The position numbers and the translations under genes are program-made. 64,000 nt of DNA, taken from assembly GCA_913053845.1 (NCBI GenBank), contig CAJXGD010000006.1:713-64712 (forward strand), written 5' to 3'. The notes beneath the pieces were generated by a model that saw only the letters and a list, made by a program, of their open reading frames with translations, had not been told where the DNA came from and made no database searches. The DNA comes from an uncultured bacterium. GTDB taxonomy: Bacteria > Bipolaricaulota > Bipolaricaulia > RBG-16-55-9 > DRJF01. Below are positions 15,591 through 63,879 of the stretch, piece after piece (the stretch's first letter is position 1; each line of letters starts with the position of its first letter).

Positions 15591-15598
15591 CTATAATT

Positions 15599-15763: not shown

Positions 15764-15792
15764 TTGACAACTGGCCGGCTCGCGATTATCAT
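15764..15792 (+). promoter_or_regulatory. sigma70-like promoter for tRNA-Gln (TTGACA-17-TATCAT)
   Basis: Perfect -35 TTGACA at 15764-15769, 17-nt spacer, -10 TATCAT at 15787-15792, ~13 nt before the tRNA 5' end. Confidence 0.45.
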
Positions 15793-15805
15793 AAGGGCAG
15801 TTCAG

Positions 15806-15879
15806 TGGGAGATCGTCTAATGGCAGGACGACGGGTTCTGGTCCCGTTAGTGGGGGTTCGAATCCTCCTCTCCCAGCCA
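15806..15879 (+). tRNA. tRNA-Gln (anticodon CTG), CCA encoded
   Basis: Acceptor TGGGAGA/TCTCCCA (U1-A72 as in bacterial tRNA-Gln), anticodon stem ACGGG/CCCGT loop TTCTGGT (U33, CUG, G37), T arm GGGGGTTCGAATCCTCC, GCCA 3' end. Confidence 0.8.
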
Positions 15880-15890
15880 GAGTGATACTG

Positions 15891-33366: not shown

Positions 33367-33468
33367 TGATCTTCTCCTTTCGTCATTTGAGCAACACAAA
33401 TCTCCCCAGACACATTCCCTAGCGTCTGGGTATGCACCCAGCTTCCCGCGCGACCGTCTAAGGTTCAG

Positions 33469-39128: not shown

Positions 39129-41339
39129 TCAGCGCCTGACTGCCAGCTTCTGCACCCCGCTGCTGACCGTCTGCCCCTGGGCGGTGTCAACCGTGACCAG
39201 ATAGAGATAGACCCCCGTGGCCACCGGGGCGCCCAGCCGATCCTGCTCTGACCAGACCAGCGCTCGCCTGATCGTGGCGCTGAAGCTGAAGACCACCCGC
39301 CCGGCCAGGTCGAATACCTGCAAGTGCCAGCCCCTCCCAGCCGCGCCGGGGGCCATAAGCGCCGACCAGAGATATCCTGAGGCCCGGCGCTGCGGTCTGA
39401 GCGCGGCCAGCTCGGCCCGCAGGGTTCGGCCCTGGCCGACCACTATCAGGCTGTCCCCCTCGACCGGCCGGCCATTGATCGTGCCCTTTAAGCGGTAGCG
39501 TCCTGGCTTGATCTCCGAGGAGAGCACCAGCGCGTAACGCAGCCAGATCGTCCGGCCCGGCGCGGCGGCCGGCCAACTCCAGGCCGAGCTTCCGGGGTCA
39601 AACTCTCCCCCGCCATTGTCCAGCGGCACGATGCGAAAACCCGCAGGCGGCTTCTCCTGCAGTCGCAGGCCGCCGAAGCGCCCCAGTGGCATTTGCAAAT
39701 TGATCGAGACGACCAGTCGCTCGCCAGGTCGGACAGCGGAGCCCGTATGCTGAACGTGACGTGCGGCGCTGGGCCAACCTAGGATCAAGTCTAGCTCGCC
39801 GGCCCCATAGGTGACGTCGGGACCGGGCGGGCCCAGATCGGTGGCGTCCCCGCGCAGAGCGGCCTTCAGTTGGGCGGTGCTCCAGCCGGGATGCTGCGAG
39901 AGCAGCAGTGCGGCCGCTCCGGCCACGTGCGGCGCGGCCGCCGAGGTCCCCAAGAAACCGCCGAATCTATTAGAGAAGAAAAGATTGTCTACCCCATCGG
40001 GTCCGACTAAATCCGGCTTGATGCGCCCATCGAAGGTGGGCCCCAGGGCGCTGAAGCTCTCCTGAGGGCCGCTGGACCAGCGCTCGCGATTGACCGCTCC
40101 CACGGCCAGCGTGCAGCTGCAGTCGGCCGGAGCGACGAGGCTGCCGTGGGGTATGGGCTTCTCAAAATATGCTCCCGACTCGATCTGAAAGAGCCGCAGC
40201 CACATCGGCCGCGTGGCCCAGTGGGCGCGGACCCGCACGAAATAGACACCGGGATGGTCAGCCACATATTGCAGCTCCTCGCGTGGTGGCTGGGTCCCCG
40301 TCTGGCGATTCTGAGAGCTGGCCAGCACCTTGCCACGGGCATCGGTGAGATAGAGATCGTAATCCTGATCGGTCGTCGGCCAGTCGTTCCAGACCAGCAC
40401 CAGGTCAATCAGGCCGCCAAGCGGCACTTTCAGCGCTAGCGACTGCTTCCCCAGGGCGAACTCGGCCCAACCGTCGTGGTTGCTGTCGCGGAAGCGGCCT
40501 ATCCAGTGCGCCTGTGCTTGATTGCCCGCCGCGTTGACCCAAAGGATCCCCGCGGCACGAGCTCGACGCGCTATCTCATTGATCAAACCCGTCCCGTCGT
40601 CGAAATCGGTATCGAACCAACCGAGCGAGCAATTGATCACCCGAACACCTAGCCGAATCGCATCATCCACGGCGTTCTCTAAGTCAACCTCATCGCCGAT
40701 CTTCATCAGATATAGCTGAGCACGCGGGGCCATCTCATGGACGATCTCGGCCACGGCGCTGCCATGCTCGCCGCCGGTCAGCAGTCCTTTGCCGGTATAG
40801 TCTTTTTTGAAGACGATCGCGCCGGCCGCCAGCACCCGGTGCTTCACCGCCCAGTAGAGCCCGGAGAAGCCGGCATCTATGATGGCTACCTTGACCCCTT
40901 GACCTTGGAAACCCTGGCTCTGGAAGAGCAGGCCACCGGTGGGCAGCAGCCCTTGGCTGAGCTGCAACTGACCCAGCGGCGCCCAGCGGTAGGGCCGACG
41001 GATATATCTGATGCCGGGGACACGGGTGGCGATCTCATTCAAGCGATCCAGCGGCAGGCGGGCGCGCAGCAGGTCGGATGAGCGCGCCTCGATCTGGGCG
41101 CCCAACTCTCGCAAGGCCGCTTGATCTATCGCGCCGCTCGCGCCTCCCAGGGGTTCGATGATCGCCGTGACAGAAGCACCCGGCCGGCTTGTGGCAGCCA
41201 GCCGGGCCAGCGAGCTCTCCAATTTGCCGCTCGGCGGAGGAGGGCCGGCTAAAGCGATGAAGGAGAGCGCAGCAAAGAGCAGCAGTAGGGGCGAAGCATT
41301 CGCAAGCCAAGAACGGCGTATCTTCTTGAATGCTTGCAC
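39129..41339 (-). CDS. subtilisin-like serine peptidase (S8) with T9SS-type C-terminal sorting-domain-like tail
   Basis: 736 aa; catalytic D (VAIIDAGF), H (HGSAVAEIV), S (GTSAAAPHVAGAAALL); C-terminal ~80 aa LQVFDLAGRVV..GVYLYLVTV..GQTVSSGVQKLAVRR shared with the three downstream paralogs; GTG start. Confidence 0.8.
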   Translation of the reverse strand: MQAFKKIRRSWLANASPLLLLFAALSFIALAGPPPPSGKLESSLARLAATSRPGASVTAIIEPLGGASGAIDQAALRELGAQIEARSSDLLRARLPLDRLNEIATRVPGIRYIRRPYRWAPLGQLQLSQGLLPTGGLLFQSQGFQGQGVKVAIIDAGFSGLYWAVKHRVLAAGAIVFKKDYTGKGLLTGGEHGSAVAEIVHEMAPRAQLYLMKIGDEVDLENAVDDAIRLGVRVINCSLGWFDTDFDDGTGLINEIARRARAAGILWVNAAGNQAQAHWIGRFRDSNHDGWAEFALGKQSLALKVPLGGLIDLVLVWNDWPTTDQDYDLYLTDARGKVLASSQNRQTGTQPPREELQYVADHPGVYFVRVRAHWATRPMWLRLFQIESGAYFEKPIPHGSLVAPADCSCTLAVGAVNRERWSSGPQESFSALGPTFDGRIKPDLVGPDGVDNLFFSNRFGGFLGTSAAAPHVAGAAALLLSQHPGWSTAQLKAALRGDATDLGPPGPDVTYGAGELDLILGWPSAARHVQHTGSAVRPGERLVVSINLQMPLGRFGGLRLQEKPPAGFRIVPLDNGGGEFDPGSSAWSWPAAAPGRTIWLRYALVLSSEIKPGRYRLKGTINGRPVEGDSLIVVGQGRTLRAELAALRPQRRASGYLWSALMAPGAAGRGWHLQVFDLAGRVVFSFSATIRRALVWSEQDRLGAPVATGVYLYLVTVDTAQGQTVSSGVQKLAVRR

Positions 41340-41356
41340 GAATGCTTCGCCCCTAC
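41285..41356. repeat. perfect 19-bp inverted repeat (AGTAGGGGCGAAGCATTCG / CGAATGCTTCGCCCCTACT) spanning the S8 gene start
   Basis: Arms at 41285-41303 (inside the signal-peptide codons) and 41338-41356 (start codon, RBS region and 3' end of the upstream gene), with a ~34-nt loop; same arm sequence as the element at 10306-10349. Confidence 0.5.
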
Positions 41357-41358
41357 TC

Positions 41359-43113
41359 TTATCTGAGGACGACCAGCTTTTTGACCCGACTGCTGAAGCT
41401 CTGTCCGTCCGCGCCCCGGACCGTCACGATATAGAGATAAACCCCGTTGGCCAGCGGCCGACCGGAGCGATCCAGCGGCCGGAAACGCAACCGGTTGCCG
41501 CTCCCTTGTAGGTCTGCGAGGGGACGGCCGTTCAGGCTGAAGAGCTGTAGCCTGACGTCGGCGATCCCCGCTCCTCGGACCTGCAATTCCGCCCGGCCAC
41601 CTGACAGCGAGCGCAGGCCGATGGAGCTTATCGCTAGAGGTGCCGCTGCCGCTGTGGGCTCTCTCATCATGCTCTGGCTGACTCCCAGGAAGCGGAGCAG
41701 GTCGCCCCAGAGGCCACCTACTGCCAGACTGGGCGGGCCGGGGGGCAGAAGCGAATTGTCCCAGCGGTTACGGTCCAGACCGGCGCTGAATAGCTTGCAA
41801 CTACCGGCCACTTTGACCCAGTAGCCCTTAAAATCATTGAGCGGCTCGCTGGGATCAATCGGCGCGTACTTGCTGCCATCGTACCACCAGGGCCCCGATT
41901 GCAGTTGACAGCCGCGAAAGATCGAGCCAATACGATTCCAGCTCTTGGAGGAGGAGATCAGATTCCAACCCTGATGCAACTCCAGATCCTGACGGACATT
42001 GGTGCCGGTCGCCTGCAGGGTGCAGGCGTTATCCACCTTGAGCCAATAACCCTTGGCCGGCTCCAGCTTGTTGGCCTGGATATAGCGGCTGCCGGTCCAC
42101 TCCCAAGGGCCGCTGGCGAACTGACAGGTGCCCTTCAGATCAGCCGGTGCAATGGTGCCCACCGGTGAGGAGATCATGTTCCAGCCGGCGTCGAGCCGCA
42201 AGATCAAGCCGGAGATCGGCACTGGAGGAGGCGGCGGCGCACCGGAGGTGGGCGGGCCGGACTCGCTGATGATGCTAAAACTGTCGGTGAGTGGGCGGTC
42301 ACTCAGGAAATTCGAGCCACAGTTGATCGGGATATCCCGTTGGCAAGGGCCGTTCTCTTTCAAAGGCGTATCGTCGGCCACCGCCAGCCGCAGCGAGACG
42401 TTAATCCGGCCGGCTGGAGCGTTGGAGCCGATGTCCACAGTGAAGTAGAGCAGCAGCGGCGTCGTCTCGCCACCCAGGCCGGCGGCGTAGACCGGCTGTA
42501 GGTTTTGGCTGGTCATGATCCAATCTTGCTGGCGCCCGAAGCGGGCGACGGCCTGCCCATTGCTGTTGGTAAATTGAACCGGCACCCGGGCTATCAGCTC
42601 GTTGGCCTGGAAGAGGATGCCATCTCCACCTCCACTAAAAGGAGGGAGAGGGAAGCCATCGGTGTAGACACGCAAAGTCTTGAGTGCCTTGGCGCCCGGT
42701 CCGCTAAAGGTGATCACCCCGCCCTTGATGCCGGTGGCCAGGCCATCGGCTCCGCCGGTCTTGGCCGGCTTGGGCGTGCAGCCTAAGATCGCCAAGCCGC
42801 CGGAGATGGCCATCGGCGTGCCCGGCAGAGAAGGGACGATCTTAGCGGTAGTATTATTCAGCACTCCGCCGTCACAGATGCCCACCACAATGGCCAGCGC
42901 CTCATCGGTGCCCGGGTTGATCTGTCGCGCTTGATCCCGTGTCAGCAGGTTGGTCAGGTGAATCACCTGGATGTCGCTCTCCGCTAGGCCGCTGCCGGCC
43001 AGATAGCCTGGTAAAGGCGCCGCTGAGGCCCTCCCGCCGCCGGTCCCAAATCCCACCAGCAGCAGGACGGACGACAGCAGCGCCACCAGAACAGTCCGCA
43101 TGCTATACTTCAT
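41359..43113 (-). CDS. secreted repeat protein, paralog 1 (shared N-terminal domain, 2 Trp/Cys-rich modules, T9SS-type CTD-like tail)
   Basis: 584 aa; signal peptide; N-terminal domain ~65% similar to paralog 2; two modules of the form GWNMISSPV..C..GPWEW.G..Y..A..LEPAKGYWLKV..C; CTD ..GVYLYIVTVRGADGQSFSSRVKKLVVLR. Confidence 0.6.
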   Translation of the reverse strand: MKYSMRTVLVALLSSVLLLVGFGTGGGRASAAPLPGYLAGSGLAESDIQVIHLTNLLTRDQARQINPGTDEALAIVVGICDGGVLNNTTAKIVPSLPGTPMAISGGLAILGCTPKPAKTGGADGLATGIKGGVITFSGPGAKALKTLRVYTDGFPLPPFSGGGDGILFQANELIARVPVQFTNSNGQAVARFGRQQDWIMTSQNLQPVYAAGLGGETTPLLLYFTVDIGSNAPAGRINVSLRLAVADDTPLKENGPCQRDIPINCGSNFLSDRPLTDSFSIISESGPPTSGAPPPPPVPISGLILRLDAGWNMISSPVGTIAPADLKGTCQFASGPWEWTGSRYIQANKLEPAKGYWLKVDNACTLQATGTNVRQDLELHQGWNLISSSKSWNRIGSIFRGCQLQSGPWWYDGSKYAPIDPSEPLNDFKGYWVKVAGSCKLFSAGLDRNRWDNSLLPPGPPSLAVGGLWGDLLRFLGVSQSMMREPTAAAAPLAISSIGLRSLSGGRAELQVRGAGIADVRLQLFSLNGRPLADLQGSGNRLRFRPLDRSGRPLANGVYLYIVTVRGADGQSFSSRVKKLVVLR

Positions 43114-43199
43114 GTTGACCTCCCCTTGGATTCATGTTGAGGGATAAATGCCTCGCAGCTTCTTTATACCTCAACCGGATAAGGGGAGGCACGACGGTC

Positions 43200-45425
43200 C
43201 TAACGTAATAGTAGGAGTTTCCGCACCTCGCTGCTGGTCGCCTGTCCGTCCGCGCCCTTGACCGTCACGATATAGAGATAGACCCCGTTGGCCAAGGGTC
43301 GCCCCTGCCGGCCGAGGGTGGCCAGATGCAACCGGTTGCCTCTCCCGCGCGCCTGGGCGACCAACGTGCCGGCCAGATCATAGAGGCGCAGCTCACTGTG
43401 CCCGATGCCTCTGCCAAGCACCTGCAGCTCAAGGCCTGACCCTACCTGACTGAGCCGAACGCCTTCCAGACGCAAGGGCACAGCCTGCTGTGCTATAGAG
43501 CTGAATTCAGAGGCCGGTGCTGCGCCCTTGCCGGACAGTCCTTGGCTGTTCACGTTGCAGCCCTGGCTCACCTTGGCCCAGTAGCCCTTAAAGCCGTTTA
43601 GCGGCGTGCCAGGGGCGATCTGCTTATACTGCTTGCCATTCCACCACCAGGGACCGGAGAGCAGCGTGCAGCCGCCGGTATTGAGCTGGTTCCAGCTCCC
43701 GGAAGATGAGATCAGATTCCAGCCGGGGCTCAGGGCCAGGCTCTGGGGAAAGCTCCCTGACGAAGGTGGAGTTTGCAGGGTGCAAGGCACTCCAACCTTG
43801 ACCCAATAGCCCTTAGCCGACTCCAGGGTAGATGCTTGCTCGTAACGGGTTCCGGTCCACCACCAGGGGCCGCTGCTGAAGAGACAGTCGCCCTGCACTG
43901 CCGAGAGGGGCACCGAGCGGATCGGAGAGGAGATCATGTTCCAGCCGACATGTAATTTGAGCGTGGGGCTCAAGCCGCCGGGAGGGGCGGGGGGTTGCGA
44001 TTGTAGGGGCGAAGCATTTTCAACTGGCAGCCGGGGTATGGGGTTGAGCTCAGGGACCCATGCTGCGCCCTTATCTTGCCCCTGCGCGCTCTGGCTGCTG
44101 ACGCTGCAACCGGCCCCGACCTTGACCCAATAGCCCTTGAAATCCTCCATGGAGGTGCCGGAAGCCACCTGCTGGTACCGGGTGCCGTCGTACCACCAGG
44201 GACCGGAGAGCAGCGTGCAGCCACCGGTATTAAGCTGGTTCCAACTCCCAGATGACGAGATCAAATTCCAGCCGCCGACCAAGCTTAGACTCTGCGGGGC
44301 GTTGCTGCCTGAGGCCTGCATGGTGCAAGCTCCGGCCACTTGGACCCAATAGCCCTTGGCCGGCTCGATGGTGCCCGCCTGCTGGTAGCTGGAGCCGCTC
44401 CACCACCAGGGGCCACCGGTGACGCTGCAGTTGCCTTGCAGCGAGCTGAGCGGCACCGAGCCCACCGGCGAGGAGATCATGTTCCAGCCGGCGTGCAGAC
44501 TCAATGAGAGCCCTCCGCCTGGCGGCGCCGGCGGCGGGGTTCCGCCACCTGGAGCGGCCCCGCCGACGATCTCGAAGCTGTTCATCTCCGGGCCGCTCTT
44601 CATGAAGTTCGAGCCACAGTTGATTCCTAACAACAGGAACCGAGCACAGATGCCGCCGGCTCCTTGCGCGGTATCATCGCCGGCGCCAACTCCCAAGGCG
44701 ACGTTGACACGGCCGCTGGTGGCATCTTGCCCGATGTCCACGGTGAAGTAAAGTAACTCCGGTCGCGTCTGACCGTTTACCCCAAATGCAACGACGGGTG
44801 CGCCGTTGCGGGCGGAGAGGATCTGCTCTTGAGTGCGACCGAACTGGGCGATCGCCTCGCCGGTGCCCGTATTGAACCGGGCGGTCACCTGTTGGATCAG
44901 CTCCGCCGGCTCAAAGAGCCGCCCATTGCCGCCGCCCTTGTAGGGACCTACCGGTGGCAGGACCGGGGCATCCACATACATACGCACGGTGCGAATGAAC
45001 CTGGCTCCCGGTCCGCTGAAGACGAGAATCGCGCTGTTGACTCCGGTGGCTAGCCCGTCCGAGCCACCTGTCAAGGCGCCTCCTGAGGGTATGCAGGGAA
45101 TGGCTGCCAGGCCGCCGGCGATGGTCGCGGTGGCTCCGGCGACCGGCACCAGCAGGGTGGCGCTGGTGTTGGCCAGTACGCCCCCGTCGCAGATGCCGAC
45201 CATGATGGCCAGCACCCCGCTGGTGCCAGGTGTGATCTGGGTACCGCGATTTCGGGTGAGCAGTCCGGAGATATGAATCGTCTGAATGTCGGACTCGGCG
45301 TTGCCGCTGCCGTTGGAGAGATTCGGAATGGGTGAGGCCCCGGCAGTTGCAGCCGGACCGAATGAGGTAATGATTAGTGCCAATACTACGAAGGCTAAGC
45401 TGAACGCCTTGAGTTTGAGATTCAT
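43200..45425 (-). CDS. secreted repeat protein, paralog 2 (4 Trp/Cys-rich modules, T9SS-type CTD-like tail)
   Basis: 741 aa; signal peptide; the same N-terminal domain as paralog 1; four modules (two near-identical pairs separated by Pro/Gly linkers); CTD ..GVYLYIVTVKGADGQATSSEVRKLLLLR. Confidence 0.6.
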   Translation of the reverse strand: MNLKLKAFSLAFVVLALIITSFGPAATAGASPIPNLSNGSGNAESDIQTIHISGLLTRNRGTQITPGTSGVLAIMVGICDGGVLANTSATLLVPVAGATATIAGGLAAIPCIPSGGALTGGSDGLATGVNSAILVFSGPGARFIRTVRMYVDAPVLPPVGPYKGGGNGRLFEPAELIQQVTARFNTGTGEAIAQFGRTQEQILSARNGAPVVAFGVNGQTRPELLYFTVDIGQDATSGRVNVALGVGAGDDTAQGAGGICARFLLLGINCGSNFMKSGPEMNSFEIVGGAAPGGGTPPPAPPGGGLSLSLHAGWNMISSPVGSVPLSSLQGNCSVTGGPWWWSGSSYQQAGTIEPAKGYWVQVAGACTMQASGSNAPQSLSLVGGWNLISSSGSWNQLNTGGCTLLSGPWWYDGTRYQQVASGTSMEDFKGYWVKVGAGCSVSSQSAQGQDKGAAWVPELNPIPRLPVENASPLQSQPPAPPGGLSPTLKLHVGWNMISSPIRSVPLSAVQGDCLFSSGPWWWTGTRYEQASTLESAKGYWVKVGVPCTLQTPPSSGSFPQSLALSPGWNLISSSGSWNQLNTGGCTLLSGPWWWNGKQYKQIAPGTPLNGFKGYWAKVSQGCNVNSQGLSGKGAAPASEFSSIAQQAVPLRLEGVRLSQVGSGLELQVLGRGIGHSELRLYDLAGTLVAQARGRGNRLHLATLGRQGRPLANGVYLYIVTVKGADGQATSSEVRKLLLLR

Positions 45426-45448
45426 CTATGTTCCCCCTTGATTATACG

Positions 45449-45565
45449 CCGGGGATTGAAATCCCCGGCTACGGTGAGGCATAAAACCCCTACGGGGTTC
45501 CAGGTCGTGAACCCTCGTGAGAGGGTTTCCCTGACGTCACGTAGCCGGGAAATTCATTTCCCGGT
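45449..45565. repeat. structured intergenic element, copy A (four hairpins plus a closing long-range helix)
   Basis: Hairpins CCGGGGA-TTGAAA-TCCCCGG, CCCC-TA-GGGG, AACCCTC-GTGA-GAGGGTT, CCGGGAAA-TTCA-TTTCCCGG; CCGGCTACG pairs with the distal CGTAGCCGG; ~80% identical to copy B at 61361-61474 with compensatory changes. Confidence 0.45.
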
Positions 45566-45568
45566 CTC

Positions 45569-47197
45569 CTATCGCAGCACGACCAGCTTCTTGACCTCAC
45601 TGGTGATCATTTGTCCGTCCGCGCTCTTGACAGTCACGATGTAGAGATAGACACCATTGGCCAGCGGTCGTCCCTCGCGACTCAAAGCCATCAGGCGCAG
45701 CCGGTTCCCTGTCCCTTGGGCCTGCACGATCAACCGGCCGGCCAGAGTGTAGAGACGCAGCTCGGTGCTCTCGATGGCGCTGCCAGCCACTTGCAAGCGG
45801 ATGCTGGAACCCTGAGCGCTCAAGCGCACGCTTTGCAATTGCAAGGGTGCGGCGCCGGCTGAGGGAGGCCTGGGGAACCCTCCAAATGCAGGGGGCATGC
45901 CGTTACTCCTCTCCTGAACCACCGCCGACTGGCTGCTCACGGTACAACCGCCGCCCACTTTCGCCCAATAACCCTTGAAGCCCTCCATCGGCGTGGCAGG
46001 AGGCACCTGCTGATACCGCGTGCCATCGTACCACCAGGGGCCGGAGAGCAAGGTGCAGCCTCCAGTGTTCATCTGGTTCCAGCTCCCGGATGAAGATATC
46101 AGGTTCCAGCCGCTCACCAAGCTCAGGCTCTGCGGAGATGAGCTGCCGCCCGCCTGCATGGTGCAAGGGCTACCCACTTTGACCCAGTAGCCTTTGGCCG
46201 GCTCCAATACAGAAGCCAACTGATAGGCGGTACCATTCCACTCCCAGGGGCCGCCGCTGAAGGAGCAGTTGCCCTGCAGTGAAGAGATAGGTGAGGAGCT
46301 GACCGGGGTGGAGATCATGTTCCAACCGGCGTGCAAGCTCAGTGAGAGTCCACCTGCGCCCGGCGGAGGTGGCGGAGCCCCGCCACCCGATCCACCACCA
46401 GGCGCGGTTCCACCGATGATGTGCAGCGTGATATTACTCCCTTGCGGATTGGCCGAGGCGCCGAAGCTGTCGCTCACCCGCGCCCCGCCTACCGGTCCGC
46501 CTCCGGCCAGCGCTCCGGGGATGTCGCCGGCCACCGCTTCCAGTTGTAGGGCAAAGTCCGAGCCGCTCACCGGGTTGGGTCCAATCTTGACCACGGCCAA
46601 CAGCGAGACGGCACAGAAGTTAGCCCCTGCCACCCCCACCGTCCTGCACAATGTTCCTCCTCCCACCGAAGTGAGCGTAAAGACTGGACTGGCCCCACCG
46701 TTGGAGAAGAGCGCCTTGCCGGCGTCCAAATCGGCACCGGTGTAGGTTCTGCCCACCGGCAGGTCAATGCCGGGGTCGAAGCGTCCGTTGAAGTTGCTGT
46801 CCTGATAGATGGTCATCTCTTGGATATCGGCATCGCGGGCGTTGGTAATGGTCGTGGTGATCAGCGCGCCCATCACGTTGAGCGGCCACATACTCCCTGG
46901 GGTACAGTTGCCTGATGCCACGACGCCGGTGTGGGCCACGTAGTCATTGGCCAGCACCCAGGCGCCGGCCACCGCCGTGCTATTGGGACTGACGGTGAGC
47001 GAAGAGGGTATGCCGGTGGTGGTGAACTGATCGGTGGCCAGCACTGCGCCGGTGGGACAGCCGCTGGCGGGGACGAGCCCCGGCAAGCTGAGGTAGGCCG
47101 AGCCGTTCACCCCCAACAGGAAGGTCGCCAGCAGTCCAACCAGCAAAGCAGCCATCGGCCATCTCAGTCGGGAACGGTCTATCATCTTGAGCCTCAT
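45569..47197 (-). CDS. secreted repeat protein, paralog 3 (distinct N-terminal domain, 2 Trp/Cys-rich modules, T9SS-type CTD-like tail)
   Basis: Start set at MRLKMIDRSRLRWPMAALLVGLL (signal peptide; the ORF track extends to 47290); different N-terminal domain but the same module pair and CTD ..GVYLYIVTVKSADGQMITSEVKKLVVLR. Confidence 0.6.
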   Translation of the reverse strand: MRLKMIDRSRLRWPMAALLVGLLATFLLGVNGSAYLSLPGLVPASGCPTGAVLATDQFTTTGIPSSLTVSPNSTAVAGAWVLANDYVAHTGVVASGNCTPGSMWPLNVMGALITTTITNARDADIQEMTIYQDSNFNGRFDPGIDLPVGRTYTGADLDAGKALFSNGGASPVFTLTSVGGGTLCRTVGVAGANFCAVSLLAVVKIGPNPVSGSDFALQLEAVAGDIPGALAGGGPVGGARVSDSFGASANPQGSNITLHIIGGTAPGGGSGGGAPPPPPGAGGLSLSLHAGWNMISTPVSSSPISSLQGNCSFSGGPWEWNGTAYQLASVLEPAKGYWVKVGSPCTMQAGGSSSPQSLSLVSGWNLISSSGSWNQMNTGGCTLLSGPWWYDGTRYQQVPPATPMEGFKGYWAKVGGGCTVSSQSAVVQERSNGMPPAFGGFPRPPSAGAAPLQLQSVRLSAQGSSIRLQVAGSAIESTELRLYTLAGRLIVQAQGTGNRLRLMALSREGRPLANGVYLYIVTVKSADGQMITSEVKKLVVLR

Positions 47198-47319
47198 ATC
47201 TGCCTCCTTTGCGTAGAGTTGATGATCACGAGATTCGGCATGGAGCATTCTAGCAGAGAGATGGGGAGAGGACCAAATAGCTAAAATCAAGAGCAGAGGC
47301 TACCTATGCGGTGCCCCGC

Positions 47320-51166: not shown

Positions 51167-53029
51167 TCAAGCTGGCCGGCGACGGACCCACTCGAAAGCC
51201 GTCCAGCCGACCAGGAGGAGCAGCACCACCAGCAGAACGGTCAGCGAGTCGCGGCTGCCCAGTGGCTGCCCTGCCTCGGAGCTCTGGCCGGTACTCTGGA
51301 GCGTTTTGACCTGCTGGCTGAGCGCAGTTAATTGGGTCTTGGAGCGCTTTTGCTCCTGAGTCAGTTGGCCGGAGAGTGCCTGCACTTGCCGTTGCAGCGC
51401 GGCCAGTTGGCCAGAGAGCACCTCCACTTGCCGTTGCAGCGGTTGCAGCGCGGCCAGTTGACTAGAGAGCGCCTGCTGGGTTTGCAGTTGCTCTTGCAAG
51501 CTCTCTTCGAGCTGTGTCAGCCGCTCCGGCAGCTTTTGCTCAGCCAGACCCTGTAAGGCGGCCAACTGTCGGCGCATGACCTGCAGTGCGATGCTGTCGC
51601 TTTGGGGAAAGCCCCAACTAGGCCTGGAAAACTCCTGGCCCTGCCAGCGGCCGATCCAGTTCAGCCGGGCGGCCAGATAGAGCGCGCCGCCGCTGACAAA
51701 GCGCCGGTTGACCGGTTGCCAACGGCCGCTTGTGGGGTCAAACCGCACCGAGGCCGTGAAGACCGGCGCGCGACCGAACTTGCTGACGATGGCCCCCGAG
51801 GGGCTCTGAGGACGGGCGGCCTGCAGGGCGCCGTTGAAGAATTTGGCATACTGGCTCTGAACCTTGGCTCTGTCCTGCTTATTCAGTTCTGCCAGATGGA
51901 TGATCGCGTTGAAGGCGCCGACCGCATCGCCCAGCTCTTGGACCGAATAGAGATAAACGGGTGCATCGCCCGCGCGGGAGGCGAATAGCTCAGCTTGGGG
52001 GTCCCAGAGCTTTTGCAGCCCCTTCCACTGCCGCAGCGCCTCCAGGAGCACCGTCCGCTCACCGCTAAGCCGATAAACGCTGAGCAGCGCGGTCACCGCC
52101 TCGGCCTGCGCTGACCAGTCGCCCTGAGCCGAGCTGAGCCGGGGCAGCATCTCGCGGATGAGCTGCAATACCGGCCTGATCTCCTGGGGGCTGCTCAGCG
52201 TGGCGGCATAGGAGACCAGCGCCTCGACCCCCAGGCCGGCCTCGCGGGGGCTTAGCTCAGAGGCCCGGCGCAGCAGCCCCTGGCCGCCGCTCAGAGCGCT
52301 AAAGAGCTGCCGGGCCATTTGCCGGGCTTGCTCAGGCGAGACCAGGATGTTCCCACCCGGCGGGCTGGCGGTGGCCAGCTTGGACCAGGCCCAGAGCAGG
52401 GTGATCTGATCCAGCGGCAGAAAAGCACGATCCACGATGGCCCCGCCGCGCCAGCCGTGAAAATACAGGCCAGTCTGGGGATCGCGCAGGTTGGTCTGAG
52501 CGAAGAGCGTCCCCAGTAGGGCCAGCCGCCCCAAGAGCCGGCCCTCCCAGCTTTGTACTGCCCGGCGCTGGACGTCCGGTGCGGGCTCTCGCTCGAAACG
52601 CTTGACCCAAGCCAGCTCGTTGATGATGGCCCAGGCCAGCGCTTGCGGGCTGACCGTGCGGTCCATCTTCGCCGGGTCCCAATGTAGGGTCTGGGCATTG
52701 ACTGGCTCAGGCTGTTGAACGTAAGCGGGATCCCCCGAAGCGTAAGGTGCCTGCACCAGAAAGGCGTTGCGCCACGGTGGTCTGTTCAAGCCGGCCTGGC
52801 GCAGCAGCGCGGCAGCCGCCGGGGCGGGCAGGCGAAAAGCCACGCCCATACCGGACTGCAGCGTCAAGGCCAGGAGGTTATCCAGTGCCGCTTGGGCCGA
52901 ATCCTCTTGAGCGCTCTGCCAGGAGCTCTGCTGCGACTCTAGGGAGAGCGCCGGCAGGGCCGATGAGCTTAACAGTGCTATCAGCACCGTCACCATCACC
53001 AATGAGCGCACGGCTATCTTGGCTCGCAC
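51167..53029 (-). CDS. membrane-anchored protein with large N-terminal domain, coiled-coil heptad repeats and C-terminal TM anchor (hypothetical)
   Basis: 620 aa; signal-like N-terminus; ~100 aa of LAALQ..LSGQLAALQRQVQALSGQL repeats; C-terminal LTVLLVVLLLLVGWTAFEWVRRRPA. Confidence 0.5.
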   Translation of the reverse strand: MRAKIAVRSLVMVTVLIALLSSSALPALSLESQQSSWQSAQEDSAQAALDNLLALTLQSGMGVAFRLPAPAAAALLRQAGLNRPPWRNAFLVQAPYASGDPAYVQQPEPVNAQTLHWDPAKMDRTVSPQALAWAIINELAWVKRFEREPAPDVQRRAVQSWEGRLLGRLALLGTLFAQTNLRDPQTGLYFHGWRGGAIVDRAFLPLDQITLLWAWSKLATASPPGGNILVSPEQARQMARQLFSALSGGQGLLRRASELSPREAGLGVEALVSYAATLSSPQEIRPVLQLIREMLPRLSSAQGDWSAQAEAVTALLSVYRLSGERTVLLEALRQWKGLQKLWDPQAELFASRAGDAPVYLYSVQELGDAVGAFNAIIHLAELNKQDRAKVQSQYAKFFNGALQAARPQSPSGAIVSKFGRAPVFTASVRFDPTSGRWQPVNRRFVSGGALYLAARLNWIGRWQGQEFSRPSWGFPQSDSIALQVMRRQLAALQGLAEQKLPERLTQLEESLQEQLQTQQALSSQLAALQPLQRQVEVLSGQLAALQRQVQALSGQLTQEQKRSKTQLTALSQQVKTLQSTGQSSEAGQPLGSRDSLTVLLVVLLLLVGWTAFEWVRRRPA

Positions 53030-59022: not shown

Positions 59023-59517
59023 CTACCCCCCCGGCGCGCAGGGCACCACCGCGCTCAAGTGCCACCCTGCCCCATACTCGAAGCGATTGGCCAGATTGCC
59101 TTTGGCATCGTAGAGATAGGCCGAATCGCCGTTGGAGTCGCACCAGACGTACCTGAGCGTCCAAAAGAGGTCGGGCGTCTTGCCTTGGCATTTGGTGCTC
59201 GAATGGCCCAGCGCCTCCGGCCCGGAATGCACTCGAATCATCTGCTGGCTCTTGAGCACACAGTCCTGCGGGAACCGATAGGCGATGCCTATCGTCTTAT
59301 TCGGCCGATGCGCCCAGAGCGTCCAGCCGGAGATATCCACCGGCTTGTCGCCCTGGTTGGCGATCGAGACCATCTCGTCTCGGCTGTACTGGCGAATGGT
59401 CACCACGCGCACCGCGTAGTGAGGCGCGTTCTTCTCCTGCGGCTTGGGTCCCAGCAGGAACCAACTGCCCAGGGTGATGGCCAGCAGCACAAGGGCGAGA
59501 ACTAATATTTTGGTCAT
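59023..59517 (-). CDS. secreted lamin-tail-domain (LTD) protein
   Basis: 164 aa; signal/TM N-terminus; LTD-like block EMVSIANQGDKPVDISGWTLWA..YRFPQDCVLKSQQMIRVHSG. Confidence 0.5.
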   Translation of the reverse strand: MTKILVLALVLLAITLGSWFLLGPKPQEKNAPHYAVRVVTIRQYSRDEMVSIANQGDKPVDISGWTLWAHRPNKTIGIAYRFPQDCVLKSQQMIRVHSGPEALGHSSTKCQGKTPDLFWTLRYVWCDSNGDSAYLYDAKGNLANRFEYGAGWHLSAVVPCAPGG

Positions 59518-59533
59518 AGACCCTCCTTAAGCC

Positions 59534-61147
59534 TTACGGCCCCTTGGTGATCGTGGCCGTATATATATTCTGGTTGCGGCAGCCTTGGGTGAGCGTCTCC
59601 AGCTTCTTCGGATCGCAAGGCGGATTGGTCACCGGCTGCGGCTTGACGTCCCGATTGTCCGTCCAGATGACATGGGTCTTCCCTCCAGCCGAAGCGATCG
59701 AGATGTAGTCGCCGATGAAGGGCACCCGGCCCCCGCCAAACATCTTCAAGTTAGGGTCGAAAGAGCGATCTGTGACCCGGATGCTCTCAGATGCCGGGAA
59801 GTGGACCGGGCAGCCGACGGGCGCCTCGGCATAATAAACGTCCAAACGCCTCATCAAGGGGTTCTTGGGCGAGAATTGCGGATCGTTGCGGCTGTCATAC
59901 CAGGCGACCTTGACCAGGCCGTCGGCCACGGTCACCGTGGGCATGACCTGGTAGCCGGTCGTTGCCGGAGCCACCACTGCCGGCTTGCTCCAGCGCAGGC
60001 CCTGATCGGCCGAGCAGGAGATGACTATCTGGGAACCCTGGTCGGTCAGCTTCTCATCCCAGACGATATAAACGTTCTGGCCATCGGAGGCGGCGCTGGG
60101 GAAGCTGCGATGACGAAAACCCGGCGGCACGGTGGCATCCTCGAACACCTGATCGAAGGGCCGGATCTTCTGAATGGGAAAGACCGCCAAGAATGACCGT
60201 CCTGCGTCATTGGAAACGGACATGCTGATGCTCTCCCGCTGGTCGCCGGCCAGCTCCTGGCAGCCCTTAAAGCTGCGTACGAAATCGCAGATATTCTGGT
60301 CGCGCCAGAAGAGATAAACGTTGCCCTTGGCGTCGGTGGTAATGGTGCAACCTCGCGCCTCGGCGGGGAAACCGGCCAGGCTGGTCTTGGGAGCCAGGAC
60401 CACCTGAGGGGGTGAAAAGGTCTTGCCGTGATCGGTGGAGCGACTGAAGAGGATGACCGCCGGACTGCGTGTCCAGCCAACATAGATGTTCCCGTCGCTC
60501 GGGCCGCCGGAGTTGTCAATGGCCATACAGGGCTTGTCGCTGAAGGCGGTGGTCGGCTCGAGGGTCACCAGAGCAGTCCCCATATATTTGGCGCCATGAT
60601 CGGCGTAGCGGGCGACGATCACCCCTTCTTTGGAGGAGTTGCCGTAGCCGAAATTGGCCGGGATGATCAGGCCCAGATAGAAAGCGTTGCCCTGACTGTC
60701 GAAGGCCAGGACGGGATCACTCATGCCCTGGAAGCCATGAGCCGGCGAGTCGCGGCCTTCAGATGAGATGTCTCCCGGGTAGCCGGGGACGAAGCTGTTG
60801 TTCCAAGTCTTGCCTCCGTCGGTCGAGCGATAGTAGCCCATCCAGACGGTGTATTTGAAGGACCGTGATAATTCCAAGCGATAGTCATTGGCACCGGCAA
60901 CCAAGATATTGGGGTTGGTGGGATCAACGGCGATGGTGGGCTCGTTCTGCGGAAGATTATTGCAATCGAAATTGGGGCCGAAACCGGTATGACAAGGCTG
61001 ATCGTTGTTGTCATGGATAACCTTGATATTGGGACCTACGATCAAAGCACTGCTGCCACCATATAGAGGGGCACTGCCGAGCCCCAGGCTAACGGCAGTG
61101 ATCAAGAGGACCAGCGTCAGCCAGCGCCAACTGGAGATATGTTGCAT
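59534..61147 (-). CDS. secreted BNR/Asp-box repeat protein (sialidase-like beta-propeller)
   Basis: 537 aa; signal peptide; Asp-box motifs STDGGKTW, STDHGKTF, SNDAGRSF, SADQGLRWS spaced ~60-100 aa apart. Confidence 0.7.
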   Translation of the reverse strand: MQHISSWRWLTLVLLITAVSLGLGSAPLYGGSSALIVGPNIKVIHDNNDQPCHTGFGPNFDCNNLPQNEPTIAVDPTNPNILVAGANDYRLELSRSFKYTVWMGYYRSTDGGKTWNNSFVPGYPGDISSEGRDSPAHGFQGMSDPVLAFDSQGNAFYLGLIIPANFGYGNSSKEGVIVARYADHGAKYMGTALVTLEPTTAFSDKPCMAIDNSGGPSDGNIYVGWTRSPAVILFSRSTDHGKTFSPPQVVLAPKTSLAGFPAEARGCTITTDAKGNVYLFWRDQNICDFVRSFKGCQELAGDQRESISMSVSNDAGRSFLAVFPIQKIRPFDQVFEDATVPPGFRHRSFPSAASDGQNVYIVWDEKLTDQGSQIVISCSADQGLRWSKPAVVAPATTGYQVMPTVTVADGLVKVAWYDSRNDPQFSPKNPLMRRLDVYYAEAPVGCPVHFPASESIRVTDRSFDPNLKMFGGGRVPFIGDYISIASAGGKTHVIWTDNRDVKPQPVTNPPCDPKKLETLTQGCRNQNIYTATITKGP

Positions 61148-61493: not shown

Positions 61494-61533
61494 CACAAAA
61501 ACAAAAGCCCCGGATCGTACCCGATCCGGGGCT
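61494..61533 (-). terminator. Rho-independent terminator of the 61554-62897 gene
   Basis: Minus-strand stem AGCCCCGGATCG-GGTA-CGATCCGGGGCT followed by TTTGTTTTTGTG, 20 nt after the stop codon. Confidence 0.6.
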
Positions 61534-61553
61534 TGTCATGCACGTTTGAATGG

Positions 61554-62897
61554 TTAGAAGTTGATGCCGGCGCCGAAGACACCCTCCCACGCTGGGACGG
61601 CCGTCACGTCAGCAGTAAGGTTGACCGCGCCCGCCGTGGCGGTGACGATGAACTCCAAGCCACTTAGGGTAACGGTGCCAGACCCTGACAAGGTAGTCAC
61701 CGTCTCGAAGGTCACGCCGGAGCGCTGTACCGATAGATCGGCTGACAAGCTGGTCAGGCCGGTACCACGAGCGGCATTAGCTGTAAGCGTCAGCGAAGCC
61801 GGATTGCTATCCGGATTGAGCGTAGTAGCCAACGTGACGCTTGTGGTGGTCGGCGTCAACGTCGAGTTGAAGTTCTGGACGATGGTCAAGCCACCACTGG
61901 AGAGCGTCAGGCTGACACCGCTGAAGAGCTGCTCCGTGATGTTGGTGGACGTCAGAGTTGCGCTCACTGCGCCCAGTGCCGTGTTGAAGCTCAGGCTGGT
62001 CATTGAGGAGAACGGGCTAGCCGCTAGACCCGTGCAAGCGTCGGGGTTGAAGCGGAATTCCAGGTACTCGTTCACGTTGACCGGACCGACCGGGATGCCC
62101 TCGACCTGGATCTTCTCTACCGCGAAGGTCAGTGGTACACCAGCTGCACCAGCCTCAGCGCAGACCACGCCTGGGAAGGTGTGATGCTTGATGATGTTGT
62201 ACCCCTGCGGATCCATGCCGATGCCGGTGATGTTGCGCACGGTGATCCCGCTGACCGTCTGGCCTTCAATCGTGATGGTGTCGCCGAAGTTGAAGGTCTG
62301 TGAGGCAGCCAGGTAGATTGCCGGTTGCGCTGCTGACGGGCTGGGGAAGCTCGTGTCCTCCAAGATCGCCAGGTTGGTCAAGGTGATTCCGGCGATGGAG
62401 ATGGAGGCCGAGACCCGCTTCTTGACGAAGAGCAGGCTAGAACTGCCGTCGCTGTTCGTAGGAATGAGGGTGTAGACCGTCTGCGAGTGGGTCTGGGTAC
62501 CGGCAGTATTATGGATTAGCAGTGTATCGCTGCCGAAGGGCATCGCGAAGACGAACTGGTCGGTGATGTTCAGCGCGCCCAGGGTCGCCTGCAGGTTGGT
62601 GATGACATCTTCCAGACCGGTGAAGCCGGCATGAGCGTGGAACCCCAGCGTCAGACCGCTGATCGTCCAGTTGATGTTCATCTCGGTCACGAAGTCGGTC
62701 TTGGTCATCGTCTTCTCACAGTTAAAAGTTGTGTTTTCTGAGCCGGGGAAGCTTACGAACGGTAGAGCACCACAAGCGATGGGCTCGACGGTGACGCTAG
62801 CGTTGAAGTTTCCGGTGACGTCGGCCCTGGTCACGAAGGACGCAAAGCCTACAGCAAGAATGAGCGCGAGTGCGACTGAGAGAATCTTCCTAGACAT
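61554..62897 (-). CDS. beta-rich secreted protein with outer-membrane-protein-type C-terminal signature (Omp-beta/porin-like, hypothetical)
   Basis: 447 aa; signal peptide; Thr/Ser/Gly-rich alternating pattern; C-terminus ..VFGAGINF (terminal Phe, hydrophobics at -1,-3,-5,-7); AAGGAGG RBS; downstream of the SLH gene on the same strand. Confidence 0.45.
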   Translation of the reverse strand: MSRKILSVALALILAVGFASFVTRADVTGNFNASVTVEPIACGALPFVSFPGSENTTFNCEKTMTKTDFVTEMNINWTISGLTLGFHAHAGFTGLEDVITNLQATLGALNITDQFVFAMPFGSDTLLIHNTAGTQTHSQTVYTLIPTNSDGSSSLLFVKKRVSASISIAGITLTNLAILEDTSFPSPSAAQPAIYLAASQTFNFGDTITIEGQTVSGITVRNITGIGMDPQGYNIIKHHTFPGVVCAEAGAAGVPLTFAVEKIQVEGIPVGPVNVNEYLEFRFNPDACTGLAASPFSSMTSLSFNTALGAVSATLTSTNITEQLFSGVSLTLSSGGLTIVQNFNSTLTPTTTSVTLATTLNPDSNPASLTLTANAARGTGLTSLSADLSVQRSGVTFETVTTLSGSGTVTLSGLEFIVTATAGAVNLTADVTAVPAWEGVFGAGINF

Positions 62898-63023
62898 TGA
62901 GGAGAACCTCCTTTAGAGTTTTGGATCTAGGTGTTGCCGCCTGTGCACAGAGAACGCTTTAGACCCTTATGTAATACCCATCACCTCCGTTTCCGTAGTC
63001 TTGCTGACCAGCATTATAACACA

Positions 63024-63755
63024 TTACCGCATCGTTGCCAAGGCTATGCCGATGATCCCGAAGATCAGTCCCACGATCGAGATGATGAAATTCCCGTTGG
63101 CTTGCCGCTTAACCCCTTCGAGCTGCTGCTCGGAGGTCGTAGAGGATCGCACCTGGAACTTGCTGATCTTGCTCTGCATCTGGCGGATGGTTTGCTCTTG
63201 CTGGTCCAGCCGCCGCTGCATGGCCTGGATCAGGCCCGACTGGCTCTGCAAGTTCTTGATCTGACTGACCAGCTCGGGGTTGGTGCCCGTCTTGGCCTGG
63301 ATGGCCGCCACCGTGCCCTTGAGCTGATCGAGCTGGCCGTTGCTCTTCTGCTGTTGGTCCGAGACCTGGAAGAGCAGGTTCTGCAGGGCCTTGATGTCCT
63401 GCGGCGAGACCTGACTGGGAGCGGGGGCAGAGGCCTTTTGACTCACCTGACCGCCGGTGTTTTTGAAGATATAACGAACGGTGCGGGCGACCATGGTGGC
63501 CGCCTGATAGCGGGTGAGCGGTTTATTGCCATTGAAGCGTCCGCCGGGCAGGCCGGTGATGATCCCGCGCTCGACCAGATATTTGATGTCGGCGGCAGCC
63601 CAATGGCCGGCCGGCAGGTCCACGAAGAGTGTGCTCGATTTGGCGGCAGATGTGTTCTGCGGCTGATGCACCGGTCCGTCGGCGACGCCGATCGCGCCCA
63701 GCCCCCAGACCAACAGCCCCCCTACGAGGATGATGGCAAAGATTCTGGCCTTCAT
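63024..63755 (-). CDS. SLH-domain / coiled-coil / C-terminal TM anchor protein (Omp-alpha-like envelope tether)
   Basis: 243 aa; signal peptide; SLH motif FVDLPAGHWAAADIKYLVERGIITG..RYQAATMVAR; ~100 aa Gln-rich coiled coil; C-terminal IISIVGLIFGIIGIALATM helix. Confidence 0.7.
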   Translation of the reverse strand: MKARIFAIILVGGLLVWGLGAIGVADGPVHQPQNTSAAKSSTLFVDLPAGHWAAADIKYLVERGIITGLPGGRFNGNKPLTRYQAATMVARTVRYIFKNTGGQVSQKASAPAPSQVSPQDIKALQNLLFQVSDQQQKSNGQLDQLKGTVAAIQAKTGTNPELVSQIKNLQSQSGLIQAMQRRLDQQEQTIRQMQSKISKFQVRSSTTSEQQLEGVKRQANGNFIISIVGLIFGIIGIALATMR

Positions 63756-63879
63756 AACTTATCAATCTCCCTTCCCGCGTGATGGGTATTACCTTCGGAA
63801 TGGTAGGTGCGGAGGGCGGGCAGGGTCAAGGGCGGTTGTCCCTTGGAGGGTTGACACGTGTACGGGTTGACCCGGTCCT

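Follow-up and report, generated by a model that had tools for sequence, protein, structure and literature searches.

The window, by which we mean the entire 64-kb stretch of DNA that was analysed, carries on its minus strand two neighbouring genes for envelope proteins of 243 and 447 amino acids (aa), separated by a gap of 126 bp (Table 1). Both open reading frames (ORFs) have exactly the coordinates given in a preliminary description of this DNA, and the longer protein ends, as described there, in VFGAGINF. Because homologues are matched with E-values reaching 1e-140, and because the third-position GC content (GC3) of the 447-aa gene, 0.77, is in line with that of other genes in the window, both ORFs are real genes. 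An antisense ORF at 62931-63782(+) is, with 283 aa, longer than the gene it covers; we rejected it as a shadow ORF, since its GC3 is 0.57, whereas real genes have about 0.77, and every homology match falls on the minus strand. The overall GC content of the window is about 0.62, in agreement with the description of a GC-rich genome. The genes ffh and lepB, which belong to inner-membrane secretion, adjoin the pair.

Table 1. Genes and predicted features at the locus (positions refer to the window).
Feature	Position	Strand	Basis and remarks
LTD (lamin-tail) protein, 164 aa, N-terminal hydrophobic helix	59023..59517	-	Pfam LTD, 50.7 bits
Secreted BNR/sialidase-like beta-propeller, 537 aa	59534..61147	-	Pfam BNR_2 and BNR
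Predicted intrinsic terminator	61505..61534	-	20 nt past barrel stop codon; 13-bp stem with 9 GC pairs, then T-run
Gene for outer-membrane beta-barrel protein (Omp-beta-like)	61554..62897	-	ORF, homologues, model, strand pattern
Shine-Dalgarno sequence GGAGG	62907..62911	-	9 nt 5' of barrel ATG; conserved in four aligned loci
Predicted sigma-70-type promoter of barrel gene	63013..63041	-	TTGGCA, 17 nt, TATAAT with TG extension; 11/12 matches
Gene for protein with SLH domain, rod and TM helix (putative Omp-alpha-like tether)	63024..63755	-	ORF, Pfam SLH 36.6 bits, alignment A2, PDB profile matches
C-terminal transmembrane (TM) helix, aa 221-242, NFIISIVGLIFGIIGIALATM	63030..63095	-	Hydropathy, alignment A2
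Q-rich helical rod, aa 118-204	63144..63404	-	AF2 secondary structure at low confidence, periodicity, SlpA coiled-coil alignment, weak coiled-coil family matches
Single SLH domain, aa 44-86	63498..63626	-	Pfam, alignment A2, PDB profile matches
Signal peptide, about aa 1-25, probable cleavage at MKARIFAIILVGGLLVWGLGAIGVA/DG	63681..63755	-	Hydropathy peak 2.4; conserved 'ADG' next in alignment A2

The 243-aa protein, referred to below as the SLH-rod protein, begins with a hydrophobic signal (Kyte-Doolittle scale, 19-residue window), followed by one stretch that matches the SLH family (PF00395) well above the cut-off of 20.8 bits. Seven residues of this domain are invariant in alignment A2: H51, G68, P70, G72, F74, G76 and R82, the last being part of a 'TRY' motif at the position of the 'TRAE-like' motif. 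At the opposite end lies a hydrophobic helix with a Kyte-Doolittle value of 2.6, which is the most highly conserved segment beyond the SLH domain: I224, G236, I237 and L239 are invariant, and G229, L230, G233, I234, A238 and A240 are conserved to at least 90%. The helix shows small-xxx-small spacing, and in most homologues R or K comes directly after it. The single SLH domain and the terminal helix of the preliminary description are thereby borne out, and its coiled coil of about 100 aa in part. The region between both elements is predicted to be helical and heptad-like over some 87-100 residues, and two heptad-like stretches of roughly 35-40 residues each can be recognized; they are interrupted by a G-T-N-P break near residue 159, so that one continuous coil does not emerge. 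Because the global periodicity test is marginal (3.5-residue hydrophobic periodicity, p of about 0.013 in the window protein), we call the rod a coiled coil only with caution; its signal is modest for the window protein and becomes weak among the shorter homologues, many of which show no significant periodicity. As the AlphaFold model of the monomer has a pLDDT of 48.7, secondary structure alone was taken from it.

The 447-aa protein is predicted to be an all-beta protein of 26 strands (pLDDT 84.1, pTM 0.73), without a plug domain in the model. Its strands alternate between hydrophobic and polar residues (z = 4.0), a value reached by none of 2000 shuffled sequences. The connections follow a regular scheme, with two-residue turns on one side and the long loops all on the other, the even-numbered connections having six residues or fewer. 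A topology of 25 strands, obtained by merging the DSSP strands 219-226 and 228-236, was rejected because it would break this alternation of short turns and long loops. Throughout the family, a signal peptide and the mature N-terminus 'ADVTG' are conserved, and 121 of 163 sequences end in Phe, as the window protein does. Signal peptide, even strand number, short turns and a C-terminal aromatic beta-signal are features of outer-membrane proteins that depend on BAM; structure prediction thus agrees with the outer-membrane protein that had been proposed from the beta-rich sequence and its terminus. All structural matches of the model are transmembrane outer-membrane barrels. The closest classes have 22 to 26 strands, i.e. 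TonB-dependent receptors, ushers, LptD-LptE and MtrB-MtrA, all with a plug or partner; no solved equivalent of a plug-less 26-strand barrel was found among these matches, whose TM-scores are 0.49 or less. A profile of the family retrieves no match among the PDB chain sequences, and the family is absent from Pfam and NCBIfam.

The barrel gene appears to possess its own expression signals. A promoter is predicted from its match to the sigma-70 consensus, and its -35 element sits inside the final codons of the SLH gene. Its extended -10 element, TGTG(C/T)TATAAT, is kept in three related loci (L036, L001 and L037), while the remaining spacer has diverged. The terminator behind the gene folds as RNA with -31.1 kcal/mol (z = -5.1). 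Given a strong predicted promoter and a predicted terminator of its own, the barrel protein is probably made in excess over the SLH-rod protein.

The order of the two genes is conserved. We surveyed the related loci that contain an SLH orthologue and enough downstream DNA, and in 13 out of 13 the orthologue is followed by one to three genes of the barrel family, even where the proteins have diverged to about 32% identity; a strain with 98% identity (L036) was used together with these related loci for context. All 13 belong to metagenome-assembled genomes (MAGs) of Fraserbacteria, Bipolaricaulota or Acetothermia. The barrel family as a whole is limited to MAGs with these three names and two labelled 'uncultured Thermotogae'. 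Up to eight or more paralogues occur per genome, including tandem triplets. The proteins of the window cluster with entries of Candidatus Fraserbacteria, to which the host organism belongs. Downstream of the barrel gene lie the BNR propeller and the LTD protein. L003 and L004 carry, 3' of a barrel paralogue, an orthologue of the BNR protein with 65% identity, and L006 and L007 carry a distant one in this position; in L001, L003, L004, L008 and L022, the LTD protein is again encoded downstream of the barrel gene. Most paralogue loci and the three-barrel operons lack both neighbours, whose membership in the module is uncertain.

Two experimentally solved trimeric tethers between outer membrane and cell wall, SlpA of Deinococcus radiodurans and OmpM1 of Veillonella parvula, allow a comparison at the sequence level. 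The A2 profile of the SLH-rod protein matches SlpA (7zgx) with E = 3.2e-23 over profile positions 32-201 and OmpM1 (8bym) with E = 1.9e-14 over positions 10-164. By sequence, the SLH-rod protein is homologous to the SLH and coiled-coil stalks of both. In SlpA and OmpM, a trimeric coiled coil gathers single SLH domains, and the barrel doubles as a pore. The SlpA barrel has 30 strands and is narrowed by its own loops; the barrel predicted here is also very large. Stalk and barrel are fused in one polypeptide in SlpA and OmpM, whereas here a stop codon, the intergenic gap and a predicted promoter stand between them, and the stalk ends in the TM helix instead of a barrel.

In its division into two genes, the locus resembles the Omp-alpha/Omp-beta pair of Thermotoga. 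In Omp-alpha of Thermotoga maritima, too, a signal peptide precedes one N-terminal SLH domain, and a helical rod leads from there to a hydrophobic segment at the C-terminus; the second of the two neighbouring same-strand genes encodes a Sec-exported beta-barrel. Several barrel paralogues per genome and a related lineage reported to lack LPS genes are further points of similarity. The Thermotoga toga contains several Omp-alpha proteins with SLH domain and coiled coil, which are enriched in the toga fraction, as well as diverse barrel trimers. The differences lie in the rod, which in T. maritima is about 45-50 nm long and here about a third of that, in the conserved promoter and the terminator predicted for the barrel gene, and in the GC-rich genome. 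The resemblance is one of architecture: the homologue searches for either protein returned no true Thermotoga protein, and hence no sequence link to Omp-alpha or Omp-beta, and a profile search with the SLH-rod protein (with word pre-filter) recovered the same small clade only, without any Thermotoga Omp-alpha or OmpM. Omp-beta is poorly conserved even inside the Thermotogae.

The split arrangement itself is already known for this group, and the locus is therefore not new. Split Omp-alpha/Omp-beta systems in Bipolaricaulota and Fraserbacteria were reported in the survey of Witwinowski et al. (bioRxiv 10.1101/2021.05.31.446380), which describes the same configuration of SLH protein and neighbouring barrel in the same lineage; the present locus is one instance. 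According to that survey, csaB adjoins the pair in Bipolaricaulota, whereas it does not in the Fraserbacteria-type loci examined here: we found no csaB within about 10 kb of the pair in L001, L036 and L037. The text of the survey gives no rod length, strand number, conservation of the TM helix, paralogue operons or promoter. What was previously undescribed is thus anatomy and no new principle: the short rod, the plug-less giant barrel, the conserved promoter and the terminator predicted for its gene, the expansion of paralogues into operons with one to three barrels, and the recurrent LTD and BNR neighbours. Such details could steer structural or expression work on an uncultivated lineage. As a clean and compact example from Fraserbacteria, the locus supports the published claim that the entire clade of Thermotogae, Bipolaricaulota and Fraserbacteria has tethers derived from OmpM. 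How the outer membrane is fastened to the wall in deep-branching Terrabacteria also bears on the gain or loss of the second membrane.

We propose, with a probability of roughly 0.7, that the locus is a two-gene version of the SlpA/OmpM tether, of the type of the Thermotoga toga, in Candidatus Fraserbacteria. The architecture, the stalk homology to SlpA and OmpM1, the pairing in all 13 loci and the literature on the lineage support the Omp-alpha/Omp-beta-like pair put forward in the preliminary description. According to this model, the 243-aa protein would be exported, and its rod would probably trimerise, uniting three single SLH domains in one head that binds the wall. By analogy to SlpA and OmpM1, this head may bind peptidoglycan or a pyruvylated wall polymer. 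The rod, about 13-15 nm long if fully extended (13 nm at the lower end), would span the distance from the wall to the outer membrane, where the conserved C-terminal helix may lie in the membrane or against the barrel. The 447-aa protein would be the Sec-exported barrel, with about 26 strands and no plug; the conserved Phe signal at its C-terminus points to BAM as the insertion machinery. In this model it is the founding member of a family with many paralogues, which probably provides the principal pore or sheath protein of the outer membrane.

What is more delicate is the location of the C-terminal helix. When a protein exported by Sec ends in a hydrophobic helix with Arg or Lys behind it, the cytoplasmic membrane is its default location, and for this reason we place the helix at the outer membrane by analogy only. 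One specific version of our model has the helix dock on the plug-less barrel, at the trimer axis or in the lumen, and thereby rebuild an SlpA-like complex non-covalently. Such docking is consistent with the conservation of the helix, with its small-xxx-small spacing and with a gene order that is maintained at all loci examined, but we regard it as a tentative and rather doubtful refinement; in a variant of it, the recurrent small LTD protein may be a third partner that serves the barrel as plug or cap. Docking of this kind, if it occurs, would show by what means a bacterial outer membrane can hold an alpha-helical segment, and it would offer a concrete intermediate for the splitting of fused OmpM-type tethers or the fusion of split ones.

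The alternative that survives best takes the default at face value. The SLH-rod protein would then be a type I protein of the cytoplasmic membrane, its helix a stop-transfer anchor with the terminal Arg in the cytoplasm, and the role of the protein would be to connect the inner membrane with the wall or to position the latter; the proximity of the barrel gene would reflect nothing but a shared envelope cluster. The helix is indeed a classical alpha-helical TM segment, with R or K behind it in the majority of homologues; no route is known by which this lineage would insert alpha-helices into the outer membrane, and the pair adjoins ffh and lepB. In addition, co-expression with the SLH gene is not required if the barrel gene has, as predicted, a promoter and a terminator of its own. 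We nonetheless consider this location unlikely: the SLH-rod protein shares homology with the SlpA and OmpM1 stalks, which enter the outer membrane at their C-terminal ends, and Thermotoga Omp-alpha proteins of the same architecture are enriched in the toga fraction. Moreover, barrel genes follow the SLH gene at every one of the 13 loci in spite of the divergence of the proteins, and the helix is conserved far above the need of a plain lipid anchor.

A second alternative concerns the barrel, which could be neither a general porin nor the partner of a tether but a dedicated translocation channel in the manner of ushers, LptD or MtrB. It would export or hold the LTD protein, the BNR protein or the proteins with a shared tail mentioned below, and a periplasmic partner would plug it. 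This reading draws on the nearest structural classes, all of which have a plug or partner, on the lack of a plug domain in the barrel protein itself, and on the recurrence of the LTD protein and the BNR propeller downstream. It is contradicted by the fact that most paralogue loci, like the three-barrel operons, have neither neighbour, and up to eight or more paralogues per genome with tandem triplets look more like porin families than like a single machine. SlpA of D. radiodurans, furthermore, is an example of a very large barrel whose own loops narrow it. A dedicated channel therefore appears improbable to us.

The tether proposed here presupposes a second membrane. No gene for BamA, LptD, CsaB or other factors of outer-membrane biogenesis was found in the 64-kb window, nor were bamA and lptD found among the neighbours of the related loci, and we infer the diderm envelope of the host from the barrel family itself and the literature. 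Phylogenomic surveys treat the lineage as an atypical diderm. A related Acetothermia genome has been described as combining monoderm and diderm gene signatures and as lacking LPS genes; the same genome encodes a BamA-like surface antigen. That the host is a monoderm, with the SLH protein anchoring an S-layer-like coat and the beta-rich protein being a secreted surface protein, would fit the missing biogenesis genes and the mixed signatures, but it is already disfavoured and highly improbable in view of the confident barrel model matching transmembrane outer-membrane barrels only, its lipid-facing alternation and conserved beta-signal terminus, the BamA-like antigen, the classification as diderm in surveys, and the single SLH domain, where a classical S-layer anchor has three in tandem and a large crystallisation domain instead of a 243-aa protein whose remainder is rod and TM helix. 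Two further observations that had been connected with an outer membrane were confirmed. An Lnt gene is present at 29275-30894(-); because Lnt is also found in some monoderms, it lends weak support to a diderm envelope. Finally, four neighbouring proteins share a common C-terminal tail.

Both members of the pair lie on the minus strand, separated by a gap of 126 bp (coordinates are listed in the table). We regard the two ORFs as real genes, because the SLH protein and the barrel protein each have dozens of homologues, with E-values to 1e-140, and because the GC3 of the barrel gene (0.77) is like that of the remaining genes of the window. An antisense candidate was rejected as a shadow ORF (GC3 0.57, without homology); it overlaps the whole SLH gene and is longer, and a naive longest-ORF caller would take it instead.

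The SLH protein has a single SLH domain (residues 44-86; Pfam, 36.6 bits versus a cut-off of 20.8), and hydropathy places a signal sequence at the N-terminus and a helix at residues 221-242. An alignment of 25 homologues shows invariant positions in the SLH domain (H51, G68, P70, G72, F74, G76, R82 and R91, among others) and in the C-terminal helix (I224, G236, I237, L239), where G229, G233, A238 and A240 are also conserved in at least 90% of the sequences; the stretch in between varies in both length and sequence. The AlphaFold monomer is of low confidence (pLDDT 48.7), with helices predicted at 118-158, 160-204, 210-219 and 222-242. Together, these results bear out the architecture of SLH domain, rod and transmembrane helix that had been read from the sequence. 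The coiled coil of about 100 aa that was part of this reading is plausible but not proven: residues 116-220 show a hydrophobic periodicity of 3.5 residues (p about 0.013), and two heptad-like stretches have 75-88% hydrophobic a/d positions, but a G-T-N-P break separates them and the periodicity is weaker in shorter homologues. The rise of an alpha-helix is 0.15 nm per residue; if fully extended, the 87 helical residues would form a rod of about 13 nm. Elsewhere in the window, a 620-aa protein combines a signal sequence, a long Q/S-rich region resembling a coiled coil, and a C-terminal transmembrane helix with RRRPA after it. This protein lacks an SLH domain and matches the rod part of the alignment profile weakly (E = 0.035); perhaps it is a further rod-shaped protein of the envelope, in this case with a tail that is clearly positive-inside.

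When the profile of the SLH-rod-helix family was compared with all PDB sequences, the best match was SlpA of D. radiodurans (E = 3.2e-23), with an alignment that covers the SLH domain and continues in the coiled-coil stalk; OmpM1 of V. parvula was matched as well (E = 1.9e-14). In both proteins, a trimeric coiled coil gathers single SLH domains and runs into an outer-membrane barrel.

The 447-aa protein matches no model in Pfam or NCBIfam and no PDB sequence. Based on an alignment of 23 sequences, AlphaFold yields a confident model (pLDDT 84.1, pTM 0.73) with an N-terminal signal helix and 26 beta-strands, mostly joined by 2-residue turns. Foldseek agrees with this model, retrieving ushers, porins, LptD, TonB-dependent receptors and OmpM1; with a highest TM-score of 0.49 there is no close solved equivalent, although the fold class is certain. 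Hydrophobic and polar residues alternate along the predicted strands (z = 4.0; the observed value was reached in 0 out of 2000 shuffles). Even-numbered connections all have at most 6 residues and the long loops are odd-numbered without exception, which is the classical topology of outer-membrane proteins. Since nearly all residues belong to the barrel wall, the model has no plug domain. The signal peptide is kept in the family, as is 'ADVTG' at the start of the mature protein, and 121 out of 163 available sequences end in Phe, the exceptions being mostly fragments.

Every fetched locus was scanned with HMMs of both families. In all 13 loci with DNA downstream of an SLH-rod-helix orthologue, at least one barrel-family gene comes next on the same strand; the window agrees with this order, which gives 14 instances altogether. 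One barrel gene follows in the window, L001, L005, L008, L031 and L036 (a 98%-identical strain), two in L022, and three in tandem in L027, L029, L030, L032, L034 and L035; the contig of L037 ends 72 codons into the gene after the SLH gene. The three-barrel loci belong to more distant Bipolaricaulota and Acetothermia genomes, and their divergent barrel genes (about 500-560 aa each) form a tight operon-like block after the SLH gene. Other barrel paralogues occur at sites without an SLH gene (L002, L003, L006, L012 to L020). Directly upstream of the pair, L036, L001 and L037 carry the conserved block ffh-rpsP-KH-trmD-rplS-lepB, from which we conclude that the window ends (64000) just after lepB. 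Downstream, an LTD (lamin-tail) protein of about 165 aa (164 aa in the window) with an N-terminal helix recurs in the window, L001, L003, L004, L008 and L022 (41-70% identity), and a BNR-propeller protein of about 530 aa, 537 aa in the window, recurs in L003 and L004 (65%), with a distant relative in L006 and L007. Both are possible additional components of an envelope module.

Coordinates of features in the window and in related loci (L numbers)
Feature	Sequence	Positions	Strand	Details
SLH protein gene	window	63024-63755	-	ORF, 243 aa
Barrel protein gene	window	61554-62897	-	ORF, 447 aa, C-terminus ...VFGAGINF
Predicted extended -10 promoter	window	63041-63013	-	TTGGCA, 17 nt, TATAAT preceded by TG; 11/12 matches, near-consensus
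Shadow ORF	window	62931-63782	+	283 aa
LTD and/or BNR genes just downstream of barrel-family genes	window	59023-61147	-	
Same	L001	12702-13199		
Same	L003	6244-8401		
Same neighbour region	L008	9544-9981		
Same neighbour region	L022	12184-12573		
ffh-lepB block	L036	330-1433		SRP protein, signal peptidase I
ffh-lepB block	L001	2101-7028		
ffh-lepB block	L037	2538-7007		
Three-barrel locus (example)	L030	3233-8855		
620-aa rod-like protein	window	51167-53029	-	
Lnt	window	29275-30894	-	
Four tail-sharing proteins	window	39129-47290	-	ORFs 39129-41339, 41359-43113, 43200-45425, 45569-47290
Fused transferase	window	30942-32267	-	
Myo-inositol-1-phosphate synthase	window	32206-33399	-	
Low-GC segment	window	14001-16000		small ORFs 14262-15505; tRNA-Gln 15806-15879

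The predicted promoter of the barrel gene straddles the SLH stop codon. Its TGTG(C/T)TATAAT and a GGAGG ribosome-binding site are kept in L036, L001 and L037, with the remaining spacer divergent, and a GC-rich hairpin of 13 bp with a T-run behind it lies 20 nt beyond the barrel stop codon (-31.1 kcal/mol, z = -5.1). Judging from these signals, the barrel gene is probably an independent, strongly expressed unit, with read-through from the SLH gene possibly adding to its product.

We presume, with a probability of roughly 0.7, that the pair is a bipartite tether derived from OmpM/SlpA, composed of a wall-binding trimeric SLH-rod protein and an outer-membrane barrel. The trimer would bind the wall and extend to the outer membrane, which would hold its conserved C-terminal helix, and the paired barrel would be the copy from which the lineage's main family of outer-membrane barrels was founded. 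An unlikely extension of this model is specific docking of the helix onto the barrel or into it, by which the two proteins would rebuild an SlpA-like complex with no covalent bond between them. By default, the cytoplasmic membrane retains a Sec stop-transfer helix that has Arg or Lys after it, and the helix of the SLH protein could be such an anchor; however, the homology of the SLH-rod part to the outer-membrane-directed stalks of SlpA and OmpM1, and the synteny intact in every locus examined, make this unlikely. The size class of the barrel would also suit a dedicated translocon plugged by a partner, a reading that the porin-like expansion of paralogues renders distinctly improbable. A monoderm with an S-layer anchor is contradicted by the barrel evidence and hardly credible. 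The preliminary description, which had located both ORFs, noted the C-terminal Phe of a beta-rich protein as an outer-membrane signature and compared their adjacency to omp-alpha/omp-beta of Thermotogae as a sign of a diderm envelope, was essentially right in observation and interpretation.

An exhaustive search of 1.84 billion representative proteins with the barrel-family profile retrieved only 203 clusters at E < 1e-3. In the species genomes of GTDB, the family is confined to MAGs bearing the names Bipolaricaulota, Acetothermia or Fraserbacteria and to two labelled 'uncultured Thermotogae'; at least eight paralogues are present in one of the Fraserbacteria MAGs. The BNR protein and Lnt of the window fall into clusters of at least 90% identity with NCBI entries of 'Candidatus Fraserbacteria bacterium'. 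When about 45 ORFs of the window were scanned with Pfam, Lnt was found but no BamA, LptD, CsaB or Lpx genes. Likewise, csaB was not found near the pair in L001, L036 and L037 (to a distance of about 10 kb) or in the surroundings of the three-barrel operon in L030.

Split Omp-alpha/Omp-beta systems have been described in Bipolaricaulota and Fraserbacteria (Witwinowski et al., bioRxiv 10.1101/2021.05.31.446380), so that this kind of system is already published for Fraserbacteria, the same candidate phylum. The toga of T. maritima holds three Omp-alpha homologues, predicted trimers that combine SLH with a coiled coil about 50 nm long, together with several trimeric barrels; Omp-beta itself is poorly conserved (Sexton et al., PMC10160955). 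In a closed Acetothermia genome, a BamA-like gene but no LPS genes were found (Hao et al., PMC6092417), and in a later survey Fraserbacteria and Bipolaricaulota are placed alongside Thermotogae among the diderms whose envelopes are atypical. Previously undescribed details are increments: the short rod, the highly conserved helix, the predicted separate promoter, the barrel with about 26 strands and no plug, outside Pfam and NCBIfam models, the operons of one to three barrels, the recurrent genes for LTD and BNR proteins, and the lack of csaB nearby.

A C-terminal domain of about 65 aa (...RPLANGVYLYIVTV...KKLVVLR) is conserved among four secreted proteins encoded one after another; it resembles sorting or Ig-like tails known from surface proteins in other phyla. 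An S8 subtilase is among the four, and the remaining three are without a Pfam match; the four are probably the 'CTD-tailed proteins' of the preliminary description. A nucleotidyl-transferase fused to a CDP-alcohol phosphatidyltransferase adjoins myo-inositol-1-phosphate synthase; together they are the gene set for di-myo-inositol phosphate, a compatible solute of thermophiles, and this hints at a hot habitat. The low-GC segment (0.505 versus about 0.62 elsewhere in the window) contains only small ORFs of low GC3 and may be a small foreign insert beside a tRNA.
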